Below are positions 161 to 64,000 of a stretch of DNA of 64,000 nucleotides, in pieces. This DNA comes from Octopus vulgaris (lineage: Eukaryota). The stretch spans positions 17,236,001 to 17,300,000 of the forward strand of contig OX597842.1 of the NCBI GenBank assembly GCA_951406725.2, given 5' to 3'. The translations under genes and the position numbers were made by a program. Under the pieces are notes generated by a model that made no database searches, was not told where the DNA came from, and saw nothing but the letters and a program-made list of their open reading frames with translations. The number at the start of each line of letters is the position of its first letter. Position 1 is the first letter of the stretch.

Positions 161-555
161 TTATAAAAATATGGTAAAGTAAAAGACTTCACTTTACCAC
201 ACACCGAACTTTTCAGAAATAGCAGCCAAAAATTTGGCTATTTCTTCAACTGCAAATAAAAGTCTCTAGACAATGCATACTCAGAAAATAACTCACATAG
301 GTATAAGGAAAAACAATGAAAGATCACATCCATATACGATACCCGAGGACAGTCTGTTTCTGGATTTGTGGGTAAAACGCCACTTTTCCTTCATCAGCTC
401 AGAGATTTCTTCTGATTTAGATTTGAAAATACTAAGAATCAAACATACCCGTCCGATATCTGTAACATCGGACAAACCATGCAAGACACCCAGTACTAGC
501 GAATCCAAAAATACGAATGAGATCTATTATTCTCCCTGTCCACCCACGTGAGTCA
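161..555 (-). mobile_element. Non-coding HHR-bearing element fragment next to (TA)n tracts
   Basis: Carries the HHR at 342-403 and the TTGGCTGCTATTTCT motif shared with the 485-bp unit; boundaries approximate. Confidence 0.5.
342..403 (-). ncRNA. Type I hammerhead ribozyme
   Basis: Minus strand: tctgag CTGATGA a-gga..gtgg..ccac..tcc-a GAAA cagactg TC ctcggg; stem I pairs with G-U, stem III acag-a-ctgt is near-palindromic. Confidence 0.75.
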
Positions 556-784
556 TAGAGCATTACATTTCTGCAGAGGTAAAAACTGCAGTTCAAATTC
601 TTGGAGATAAAGCATTATATTGTCATTATATATATATATATATATATATATATATATATATATATATATATATATACATATATATATATATATATATATA
701 TATATATATATATATATATATATATATATATATATATATATATATATATATATATATATATTCACACATACATACATATATCCA

Positions 785-1050
785 CAGCTTCTGCGGCCGA
801 ACGGAACAGAATTCCTGAAATACCGCGTTAAGTCGGCCATCTACACTTTTTCCATCCTGTGGAATTCCACCTGTTTGGTGGAAGTGGACCACTAACTGCG
901 AGTTTCCTGTTTTCACTGGCAACTCACTAACAATTCGCCCAGCAGAGGCAACTGGTGAGGCTCGTGACGGCGCTTTGCTGTTCCAGTATCTCAGCCTCGC
1001 CATCACCCATGGCAACGCGTCAAGCATACTGGCGTGCCCCAATAGCCTAA
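785..1050 (+). mobile_element. 3' fragment of CRE-like non-LTR retrotransposon (RLE C-terminus), frameshifted
   Basis: Translates to EATGEARDGALLFQYLSLAITHGNASSILAC, resembling the CRE-type FQRLSLAVQRGNA terminus; KYR and GP motifs upstream. Confidence 0.6.
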
Positions 1051-1344
1051 AGTGGTGAATTATTTTGTTTTTTTCTCTTTTTTCTTCTCTCTGTTTTATT
1101 TTTTATTTTTTTCATTTGTGTTTCCTGTTTTGTCCAATTTTCTAATATGATCTTGAAAAACGGTAAACACTGTGAAGGCAATAGATTACGGAAAAAAGTG
1201 TAAGACACAAGCAAGATTTTTCTAAAATTTCTGCAGAAACAAACTTGGAGTATTTTGTTTTGTGATTTGGTTTGCAAGATTCTTTATATGATTTCGTGTG
1301 TTGAAGCATATTCTGTTGTGTCTGAGCTAAGTGATTTTCTTTTT

Positions 1345-61682: not shown

Positions 61683-62200
61683 AGTTCAGCAAAAATTTAG
61701 ATTCAAATTAATATGGTACTTAATTTAGATGCACCAGAATTTTGTTTGGGGTTATCCATAAAAATCCGTGGGGTGATTATAATCAAAATAAGCAACAAGA
61801 ATGACTCCGGTAATTTGGTACGATCGTTTCGTACTACATCATTTTATTAAATGTTGTAAGTATTACAACAGATTTAAGATGCTGAGTACTCATCAGCCAA
61901 TTATAGAGGTTTTCCATTAATACAAAAATATTCAAATCAAGTGGTAACATTATAGAGAAGGTAGATATATAGACAAAGATGTGGATTTGAATGTTAAGAA
62001 CATATGAGGTAGTGGAGTCCATCAACTGACAAACTAAGATTTGGTTGTTCCAGACGGCTGTAAGGTTGTGAGAGGGAGGAGTAAATTGAAGGAAGCAATA
62101 AAGATTTTCTAATTGTAGAAATGGTGTAAAGGGGGTTTCAGAAGTCCATAAAAGGAATTCATGTTGAAGACAGAGTCATTCTTGTTGCTTATTTTGAGTA
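61683..62200 (-). mobile_element. Non-coding HHR element in (TA)n with a short inverted terminal copy
   Basis: 62173-62196 is the reverse complement of 61783-61807; HHR inside. Confidence 0.75.
61815..61900 (-). ncRNA. Type I hammerhead ribozyme
   Basis: ttgg CTGATGA gtact..agtac GAAA cgatcg TA ccaa; ACGATCGT palindrome. Confidence 0.88.
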
Positions 62201-62313
62201 TATATATATATATATATATATATATATATATATATATATTTTATATATATATATATATATATATATATATATATATATATATATATATATATATATATAT
62301 ATATATATATATA

Positions 62314-64000
62314 TTTATTATATAGAAGGAGCTTCTACAAGACTAGAACTGTTTCATTCAAGAGAAATCATCAGGAAGCTAGTTAACAAGAATTGTGTTT
62401 TCTATATAATAAATTAATTTTACTCTGCTATCTATTGAGTACCTTATTTACTGTGGTTAACCCCGAATCAACCCGGGACCTACATATCCTAGCACACCCC
62501 AGTGCCCTTATAACCATCACCAAGAAAAAATGCTGACAAGAATCGACCTCGACACTTCCCTGAAGAACATTACTATCCCACCAAGGAAACAGTACCAAAA
62601 AGCCCTTATTAGACGGACTGATGAGTTCATCAAAAGAATTCGATGGAGATCGTTCTTCTTCGACCATCCTGATGTAGCATCTACCAATAATGATAAGTAC
62701 GGCTTCAAATCAAATAAGGCCCCTCCTACCAACAGCCTACTTGAACCGTTTGAAGAAGACCTCTTCCTCATGATAAAAAACATCAAATTCAGGAGAGTCA
62801 ACCTACTTTCCAAACGGAACTGAATGAGAAACTTTCGAAAATGAAAAGCTCCCCGCACCTCCATGTCCCTTCGGACAAGACAAAAAATATTTACGCGGTG
62901 ACTCCAGATACCTACAACAGACTAGCTGATAACGCCATCACAGCTAAGTACAAGAAAGTAGACGACACAGCGCTAACTGAAACCAACTTAGCCGGGAAAG
63001 AGATTGCCACCTCCCTTAAAATCGATGACCGAACTGAACCCTGAGGGTGAAGTCCCCACACTTCACCCTGAAAGACCACAAAGACCATTTCGAAAATAAA
63101 CCGTCGGTCCGACTGATTAACCCAACCAAGTCTGACATCGGATCCGTCAGCAAGAAGATCCTGGACAGGATTTTACCAAAAATGCGTGAAGCTTCACCCC
63201 TTCCACTCTGGAATAGGACCTCCGAGGCTATAACCTGGTTCCGGGATTTACCTGACAAAAGCAACACCCGATTCTTACAACTGGATATCGAGGATTACTA
63301 CGCCTCCATATCGGAGAGCTTGCTGATCGACGCGATTAACTTCGCTAGGAGGTCCACCACCATCACCGAGGCCGAGCAAGATGTGATCCTCCCCTTCAAC
63401 CGTGAGGTCGCTACACCTGTAGCTAAAATCTTCTTCACTCTCCTACAGAAACACTTCCCCACCCAACATAAGTACTACACTATCCTAAATAAGAACACCA
63501 TTAGACTCTCCTACTCTACCACGCCCAATCTAGCCAGGAACCTAGCCAACAACAATGTGAAAAAACTTAATATATCTACTTTTTCCGAGGCCCATCCAAC
63601 ATCCGATAGCAATTGCAACTGCCCTGATAAAACCACTTGCCCCCTCAACAACAACTGCCTACAGAGGGACCTCGTATATACATGCGAGGTAAGATCAGGC
63701 CCTGATGATAAAAGAAAATCCTACATCGGAATGACGTCAAACAGCTTTAAGACCCGCTGGTACGCCCACACACACTCGTTCCGGCGACCGGATAAATCCA
63801 ACCAAACCACCCTCGCCGCCCACATCTGGTACCTTAAAAGGAACTCCATCCCCTTCAAGACCAAGTGGAAACTACTACAGAAGGCGCGTTCGTACACAGG
63901 AGGCCATACCTGCTGTGACCTTTGCATTTCGGAGAGCCTAGAGATCTTGTTCGCCAAAGGCCCTCTCCTTAACAAGATCTCAGAACACTCCCCAAATTGC
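62314..64000 (+). mobile_element. Penelope-like element (ORF from 62530, two frameshifts, RT core deleted in frame, GIY-YIG intact), running off the window
   Basis: FIKRIRWR, PSDKT, TLKDHK..F...P.VRLINP.KSDIG, LDIEDYYASI; CNC..CPL...C, LVYTC..YIGMT..FKTRW..H, CDLC; frame open 63041-64000. Confidence 0.92.
62330..62380 (-). ncRNA. PLE hammerhead in the inverted pseudo-LTR
   Basis: agcttc CTGATGA t-ttc-tctt-gaa-t GAAA cagttctagtcttg TA gaagct. Confidence 0.8.

Follow-up and report, generated by a model that had tools for sequence, protein, structure and literature searches.

Hammerhead-bearing Penelope-like elements, putative retrozymes and a tRNA-headed element in a 64-kb stretch of the Octopus vulgaris genome

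Hammerhead ribozymes have been described in two kinds of animal retroelement. In Penelope-like elements (PLEs) they lie within pseudo-long terminal repeats (pseudo-LTRs), near the element's 3' end, with a short stem I, an extra nucleotide 5' of stem II and a palindromic stem III; many families occur per genome, mostly as solo truncated copies, with opposite-strand pairs a few hundred base pairs apart and a U3-A8 core variant (PMC4209133). In animal non-LTR retrozymes, each unit of a non-coding, low-GC head-to-tail array carries one type I hammerhead, its RNA is predicted to form a well-paired circle, and PLEs co-occur (PMC7229834; bioRxiv 10.64898/2026.07.22.740005). Both sets of features recur in the subject of this study, a 64,000-nucleotide stretch of Octopus vulgaris contig OX597842.1 (positions 17,236,001 to 17,300,000; hereafter 'the window', within which coordinates are counted unless a locus or another contig is named). 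Its 17 hammerhead motifs are genuine hammerhead signatures, six of them decayed, from mobile-element families that we term A to J. Families D, E, F and I are the 3' ends or pseudo-LTRs of coding PLEs, the ordinary case as described in PMC4209133; A, B and C are, judged from their sequence, non-LTR retrozymes (485–558-bp non-coding tandem units with one type I hammerhead each); and H carries a transfer RNA (tRNA)-like head. The best joint explanation, in which we have considerable confidence, is that D, E, F and I are PLE 3' ends while the non-coding elements are likely copied into the genome by the reverse transcriptase (RT) and GIY-YIG proteins of PLEs.

The octopus elements depart from the published cases in several respects. 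Compared with the hammerheads of PMC4209133, stem III is as long as 10–12 nt and the stem II domain about 60–70 nt (families B, E and I), and U4C cores occur family-wide; no cephalopod was noted among the hosts of that paper. The retrozyme units measure 485–558 bp, against 150–450 bp in PMC7229834 and within the 51–972 bp of bioRxiv 10.64898/2026.07.22.740005, and their ribozymes are of PLE type and not canonical. That preprint, whose hosts comprise 31 vertebrates, three insects and one anthozoan, ties retrozymes to PLEs through co-occurrence and pseudo-LTR homology, whereas our link is insertion geometry, circular RNA being here a prediction. With canonical C-terminal endonuclease-bearing (EN+) PLEs (Penelope/Poseidon, Neptune and Nematis; PMC8557442, PMC11167929) the octopus elements share RT followed by GIY-YIG, partial tandems, an inverted 5'-truncated copy, a tail at one end and AT-rich targets, but the tail is about 70–100 nt long in A–D and I and 33 nt in H, as against the 30–40 bp described for EN+ PLEs. 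Family H resembles Sm-alpha and Sj-alpha of Schistosoma in having an RNA polymerase III (Pol III)-type promoter and then a hammerhead in a short non-coding retroposon (review PMC6765202). Sm-alpha, however, forms tandems and is said to be cut from multimers (PMC6765202), whereas H is single or inverted and two-armed, has PLE-type tails and carries a minimal ACGT ribozyme; among the loci inspected none showed H as a tandem array. Non-autonomous PLEs are known from Chlamydomonas (MRC1; PMC8557442) and also from butterflies.

The first-pass annotation of this window spoke of a hidden ribozyme layer. As a phenomenon it is not hidden: thousands of motifs in many families per animal genome have been published (PMC4209133, PMC7229834), and PLE mobilization of retrozymes has already been proposed (PMC7229834; bioRxiv 10.64898/2026.07.22.740005). 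The bulk of our finding, many hammerheads of many families in one animal genome, is mostly what PLE activity leads one to expect. It is a known kind in an apparently uncatalogued host: the repeat annotation of O. vulgaris has 31 recently active Penelope-like families and, in the portion of the account consulted, makes no mention of ribozymes (PMC13282606), and no paper listed in literature searches reports, in its title or abstract, hammerheads in cephalopods or a PLE-mobilized tRNA-derived short interspersed element (SINE), although Repbase, Dfam and paper supplements may already list these families. What is possibly new is a PLE-mobilized, tRNA-headed SINE (family H) and the end-position evidence that ties retrozymes to PLEs.

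A strict type I descriptor (CUGANGA, stem I of at least 4 bp, stem II of at least 3 bp, GAAA, stem III and UH) matched the window exactly nine times, at 4262, 5105, 6500, 10793, 17409, 18418, 18816, 26369 and 61815, all of them positions in the first-pass annotation; stem III is self-complementary in all nine. Dinucleotide shuffles (200 each, in 500-bp blocks or over the whole window) returned a mean of 0.025 and 0.005 strict matches per window, respectively, and never more than one, so that the motif density lies far above that of shuffled sequence. A relaxed descriptor, which tolerates a basal stem II mismatch, added 342 and 62330, for 11 of the 17 positions (mean of 0.13 over 30 shuffle rounds). 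The other six motifs are copies mutated in core or stems: the core has become CTAATGA at 17913 and CAGATGA at 36788; 38309 has the core CTGTTGA and stem III ACTT; 55459 has stem III ACAT and a broken stem II; and stem II is mismatched at 20088 and weak at 36471. Relatives with intact cores were found for 36788 and 55459, and 38309 falls in a subfamily among the matches of a whole-genome search for minimal motifs. The Rfam matches listed, 150 of 164 for the window, include no hammerhead model, and none was listed around family C either.

The reported count of 17 motifs from about 11 unrelated families holds in part. A hammerhead-like motif is present at every one of the 17 coordinates, but they lie in 12 insertions and cannot be counted as 17 separate events: those of B, C, D and E each hold two or three motifs, in inverted or tandem arrangement. 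The families number 10, or 11 if 6500 and 38309 are split, and E and I are related, with a common 3'-end sequence and GIY-YIG domains 62% identical; this was the one similarity found when the units were compared directly. Nor is the population mostly non-coding within this window, as had been supposed: seven motifs belong to coding PLEs (D, E, F, I), six to the non-coding tandem units (A, B, C), whose existence is confirmed, one to the tRNA-headed element (H) and three (6500, 38309, 36788) to elements of which no parent was found. Two further candidates were set aside, a 103-bp tandem at 40126–40819, 6.7 copies long and 96% identical, that contains CTGATGA but satisfies no descriptor, and a weak CTGCCGA motif within unit B. 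The notion of the window as a coordinated host locus was likewise rejected; it is a repeat-rich stretch of accumulated, decayed insertions.

The three non-coding tandem families occupy the following positions.

159..626, minus strand: family A, copy of a non-coding tandem unit of 558 bp, 5'-truncated and flanked by (TA)n runs.
343–402, minus strand: family A hammerhead, cleavage predicted after 348; stem II has an A.A mismatch at its base.
4035..5336, both strands: family B insertion of a 485-bp non-coding unit in (TA)n; minus arm 4035–4734 (partial tandem, long 3' end), plus arm 4734–5336 (inverted partial tandem, short 3' end).
4262..4368, minus strand: family B hammerhead, intact, stems of 8/5/6 bp, 12-nt palindromic stem III, predicted cleavage after 4270.
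5105..5211, plus strand: family B hammerhead, inverted and intact, with cleavage predicted after 5203.
17762..19124, both strands: family C insertion in (TA)n; the unit, non-coding and 505 bp long, is present as a partial tandem and an inverted arm.
17913–17976 (minus, core mutated), 18418–18481 (minus) and 18816–18879 (plus): family C hammerheads.

None of these units holds a long frame, the longest stop-free stretch being 53 codons in B, 59 in C and 92 in A, and their GC content is 0.34–0.36. Elsewhere in the genome all three form dispersed head-to-tail arrays on many contigs, 95–99% identical to the window copies, and in family B one run comprises 14 same-strand motifs at a spacing of about 491 bp. 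Folded as circular monomers, the units have z scores against shuffles of -7.7 (A), -7.2 (B) and -4.5 (C); cleavage at the UH sites and circle formation are predicted for all three. No A or B box was found on the ribozyme strand of A, B or C, and ARAGORN at low threshold gave a single match, in A. As a side observation, the long ends of A, B and C (4035–4050, 19105–19124 and locus L165) have in common an ACCCT 12–17 nt before the end, where D has CCCT, a possible recognition signal. Words of family B occur also in sequencing runs labelled as two other organisms (shares of 0.59 and 0.26). No RNA record was listed for family B; contigs from four sequencing runs cover the unit, but since it is a guess that these runs are RNA and contigs reveal no ends, they were not taken as a sign of expression.

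It is the ends of the insertions that point to PLEs. We mapped them in A–D and I at loci that were mostly top-scoring copies and not a random draw, each locus search scoring only the 40 best candidates. Distinct outer 3' ends adjoined (TA)n in 28 of 28 cases for B, 22 of 25 for A, 20 of 24 for C, 22 of 25 for D and 29 of 33 for I. Families A, B, C, D, I and H all possess two fixed 3' ends, 33–100 nt apart, and all insert in an inverted two-armed form in which each arm usually has its own end type. A long end on one arm and a short end on the other were seen in nine of 10 two-armed insertions of B, eight of nine of I, four of six of C, three of six of A and one of two of D. Overall the ends lie about 40–290 nt downstream of the predicted cut site, not at it; in A–C the two outer 3' ends are about 100 nt apart and about 130–290 nt downstream. 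Partial tandems, an inverted copy and a tail at one end are a PLE hallmark (PMC8557442), and in vitro the PLE tail corresponds to two internal RT start sites (PMC11167929). Because A, B, C and H share this fingerprint, they are likely parasites of PLEs, which supports the published but unproven idea that animal retrozymes are PLE-mobilized and agrees with the first-pass annotation, which had proposed the same machinery.

The coding families provide the comparison for this geometry, and their features are these.

10709..17625, both strands: family D insertion, two inverted 5'-truncated arms of a long PLE 3' untranslated region (UTR) with a 1,740-bp internal tandem.
10793–10835 (minus) and 17409–17451 (plus): family D hammerheads.
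20055..26486, plus strand: family E, broken coding PLE; RT piece 21647–22189, linker and GIY-YIG 22144–23943.
20055–21539: inverted truncated copy of family E.
26369–26453 (plus, intact) and 20088–20172 (minus, stem II mismatch): family E hammerheads.
36333..36603, plus strand: family F solo 3' end, hammerhead 36469–36517 with weak stem II.
62313..64000, plus strand: family F coding PLE, broken frame from 62461 running beyond the window.
62330–62380, minus strand: family F inverted pseudo-LTR hammerhead, U.U mismatch at the base of stem II.
61684..62202, minus strand: family I, coding-PLE 3' end accompanied by a short stub in inverted orientation; hammerhead 61815–61900, intact.

The autonomous parent of D lies elsewhere, as an 838-codon open frame between D copies on contig C7 (about 50,721,705–50,724,218). 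This frame is 45% identical to the RT piece of E, has itself no RT Pfam match, and has 19 homologs, for three of which PF00078 is listed; among the homologs of the PLE protein a single one bears a name, a gene model from Octopus bimaculoides (57%, covering a third of the region searched). The RT piece of E matches RVT_1 at E 5.5e-4, below the cut-off. The F element at 62461 has its own 3' hammerhead 3.6 kb past the window edge, and the F insertion shows PLE-type geometry. In family I a GIY-YIG frame ends upstream in five of 23 other loci, one of them scoring above the Pfam cut-off (PF01541). A cysteine-rich linker and (TA)n targets are further points in which the coding families differ from the canonical EN+ PLEs. 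Among other observations in this part of the window, the 1,740-bp tandem of the D 3' UTR (11066–17178) has internal repeats of about 270 bp, a strong GC skew (up to 0.6) and a unit number that differs among insertions; a broken mariner-type transposase (Pfam Transposase_1) at 24696–25605 is inserted in the 3' UTR of the E element; and 27700–30331 is occupied by a long interspersed element (LINE) whose endonuclease and RT share a single long open frame.

Family H is represented in the window by two remnants.

55395..55555, plus strand: head-less copy of an element of about 300–370 bp; decayed hammerhead 55458–55503.
51203..51244, minus strand: fragment holding only the core's first half, absent from the first-pass list.

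The full element consists of the tRNA-like head, (AAT)n, a minimal ACGT hammerhead and two 3' ends 33 nt apart. H-type sequences accounted for 54 of the first 100 minimal ACGT motif matches listed, and we examined H in two sets of 20 loci, one selected by ribozyme (covering 21 of the first 22 H-type matches, with one skipped and two sharing a locus) and the other, at different loci, by the head sequence, which has 4,288 exact matches in the genome (control, 0). An upstream tRNA-like head was present in 12 of the 20 ribozyme-selected loci, and 12 of the 20 head-selected loci ran on into the H body while eight did not. Inverted arms occurred in 12 of 20 loci in each set; the 33-nt tail was on exactly one arm in 11 of 12 ribozyme-selected cases and in eight of 12 head-selected ones (on neither in the remaining four), and on both arms in none of the 24. 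Target-site duplications of 11–16 bp flanked nine of 11 testable insertions, compared with two of 110 mismatched pairs. As the head is copied into the inverted arms too, it belongs to the mobile unit, and as copies keep head and ribozyme in one piece, the template RNA was uncut.

Read against the familiar A and B box consensus, 16 aligned heads show an A box at 8–18, a 7-nt anticodon-like loop at 32–38 and TTCGA at 54–58, with tRNA spacing. ARAGORN at a lowered threshold marked heads in four of the 20 H loci, but many unrelated sites too; an Rfam scan of the head gave no tRNA match, and a search of a phage collection with it only one chance 18-mer. Neither poly(A) nor a LINE or other autonomous partner was found among the H loci examined. 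Two further details concern the ends of H: at loci L258, L261, L038 and L069 the complete head is mirrored by an inverted copy across a 2-nt spacer, an arrangement seen often and suggestive of fold-back priming at the 5' end of the complementary DNA, and one H end bears a short repeated 9-mer. Neither the tRNA head of the 55459 family nor the two-ended tail signature had been noticed in the first-pass annotation.

The two remaining families are the following.

6403..6602, minus strand: family G, solo element of about 200 bp ending in (TA)n; minimal hammerhead 6500–6534, stem III ACGT.
38307..38344, plus strand: G-related subfamily, decayed minimal hammerhead.
36683..37100, minus strand: family J, piece of about 420 bp of an older element; decayed hammerhead 36786–36887.

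No same-sense PLE frame adjoined G at the 40 loci checked, and its parent element was not found. In 13 of the 20 best G copies the core reads CCGA, and CpG decay may thus have given rise to the canonical core at 6530. Beside J no PLE frame was present at any of 14 loci. An intact core and an 8-nt palindrome occur in some relatives. The reading of J as a tandem retrozyme was rejected, there being no direct tandem of the unit in nine loci examined.

Beyond the window, the genome hosts a large and diverse population of hammerhead retroelements, as the first-pass annotation had suggested. In a background sample of the assembly (2.80 Gb in 227 contigs) consisting of 40 stretches of 10 kb at round-number positions, three of them on the window's contig and one of these adjoining it, the strict descriptor gave eight matches (shuffle mean 0.17), two of which look like possible chance matches. 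Extrapolation yields about 56,000 intact canonical cores (95% range 24,000–110,000), and core variants add four U4C matches (shuffles 0) and six U3-A8 matches (shuffles 0.6; three of the six are one insertion) in the same 400 kb. Exact pattern counts over the whole genome found 13,142 minimal ACGT-type motifs against five in a reversed-pattern control, and 242 copies of the family B stem III against four. These totals are of similar order to the published counts of more than 6,000 motifs in 16 families (coral), about 5,000 (mussel) and 126,247 (axolotl) (PMC7229834). Per insertion the window is about five times richer than the sample (six insertions with nine strict matches, 1.3 expected). Two sampled families deserve separate mention: a 362-bp non-coding unit with a U3-A8 core and 6-nt palindrome, as a partial tandem plus inverted arm within (TA)n (L048:8460–9680), and a high-copy PLE family (loci L296–L325; e.g. 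L297, about 2630–2700) whose hammerhead-like motif, missed by canonical descriptors, has a core of U4C type (CCGAAGA), one more U ahead of GAAA and a nearly palindromic stem III of 9 nt.

If PLEs are the movers, the PLE protein would nick AT-rich DNA on both strands and reverse transcription would start at two internal RNA sites, one for each strand and both lying well downstream of where the ribozyme cuts. Transcripts of A–C may be cut by their ribozymes, probably helped by the pairing of two palindromic stems III, and then ligated to circles, as in other animals (PMC4209133, PMC7229834), with tandem arrays as the product of reverse transcription around a circle or of a multimer left uncut. 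Pol III would transcribe H from its head, and that RNA would be retroposed without having been cut. More tentatively, PLE proteins may drive their own class of short non-autonomous retroposons, comprising the high-copy tRNA-headed SINE H, moved by a PLE and not a LINE, and the retrozymes of about 500 nt, whose insertion ends would then be direct genomic evidence for PLE mobilization of animal retrozymes; the palindromic stem III would pair the two RNAs that template the two arms.

Several observations weigh against PLE mobilization with ribozyme cleavage. Among the loci examined, none held an autonomous partner with sequence in common with A, B, C, G, H or J, and they included only one further PLE family: a search with one GIY-YIG protein query led to the single family with the U4C motif in its 3' UTR, whose 30 loci match A–J only as scattered single matches. 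The locus set, made of best-scoring copies in A–D and I, favours young insertions; A and C show exceptions to the rule of one long and one short end, and the E insertion in the window carries the same end on both arms. The fold of C is no better than that of a coding-PLE 3' end (z -4.6; 15 controls span -4.6 to +1.3). In seven of eight representatives the monomeric hammerhead lies 1.1–6.1 kcal/mol above the minimum-energy fold, which is in line with help from a dimer or a protein; B alone has the hammerhead, with a 4-bp stem III, as its minimum-energy monomer. In one reconstituted PLE, cleavage was not needed for insertion, catalytic mutants inserted normally and no RNA ends fell at the cut site (PMC11167929), and eight of nine Xenopus retrozyme dimers failed to cleave in vitro (bioRxiv 10.64898/2026.07.22.740005). 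Together with the H copies that retain head and ribozyme, the catalytic mutants and the uncut dimers weigh against a required cleavage step.

A different role for the ribozymes would have PLEs as the movers but cutting as a rare event; the palindromic stem III would serve mainly to bring two RNAs together, supplying a PLE protein dimer with two templates for a two-armed inverted insertion. Family B speaks for it, folding fully as a monomer while its loop stays palindromic through a two-sided change. Among four hand-picked B variants, the one family in which we assessed covariation, 75 of 76 pair cells are paired, with two-sided changes at five of 19 pairs, one of them the central palindrome pair, which pairs only in the dimer; the compensatory changes in these four related sequences, which do not amount to a statistic, are suggestive of stem III being kept palindromic. 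Across window and sample, 18 of 21 motif groups are palindromic compared with 11 of 23 chance matches, the latter figure indicating that the descriptor itself leans towards palindromes. The uncut H template, the insertion ends past the cut site, and the in vitro system, in which RNA that has not been cut serves as the chief substrate and dimerization of the PLE protein is predicted (PMC11167929), also fit. Pure dimerization, however, would not need the catalytic core that is conserved across unrelated families, the published explanation for the palindrome is dimeric cleavage through stem III (PMC4209133), and inverted, tailed insertions of the same kind are made by Naiad PLEs, which lack canonical hammerheads (PMC8557442). 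We regard this role as rather unlikely.

It is improbable that all families are ordinary coding-PLE pseudo-LTRs or 5'-truncated 3' ends and that the coding parents of A, B, C and H escaped detection. Such an origin holds for D, E, F and I and may hold for G and J, for which no parent was found; the searches scored only the 40 best candidates. For A, B, C and H it is unlikely. B is found on many contigs in arrays without a frame, up to 14 units long, and A and C are likewise frame-less tandems, while H starts with its head in the ribozyme-selected loci and head-selected loci run into its body, in the proportions given above.

We give as little credence to the idea that the non-coding units are satellites spread by unequal crossing-over, or SINEs copied by LINEs with twin-priming inversions, their PLE likeness being incidental. 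LINEs are indeed present in the window, H has SINE anatomy with target-site duplications and the repeated 9-mer, and local amplification has been proposed for Xenopus retrozymes (bioRxiv 10.64898/2026.07.22.740005). Yet the arrays are scattered over many contigs at 95–99% identity, and use of the two fixed ends is asymmetric, just as it is in D and I, which are coding families. Moreover, each arm has its own 3' end and the arms overlap in sequence, which is unlike twin priming. Finally, chance matches within AT-rich repeat DNA, to which the six motifs failing the descriptor and the missing Rfam hammerhead match might be laid, are effectively excluded by the shuffle controls, the reversed-pattern controls and the covariation in B.

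With PLE mobilization as the preferred reading, the octopus families bear on two questions, what moves retrozymes and what the hammerhead does in PLEs, that are described as open in PMC7229834, PMC7761336 and bioRxiv 10.64898/2026.07.22.740005. Young, 99%-identical non-coding families with mapped ends, together with an open PLE frame, make both addressable in the existing in vitro PLE assay. If H does ride on PLEs, it would extend the partnership of SINEs and LINEs to a third class of retroelement, and thousands of copies probably filed as SINEs or unknown repeats in cephalopod annotations would carry ribozyme motifs.

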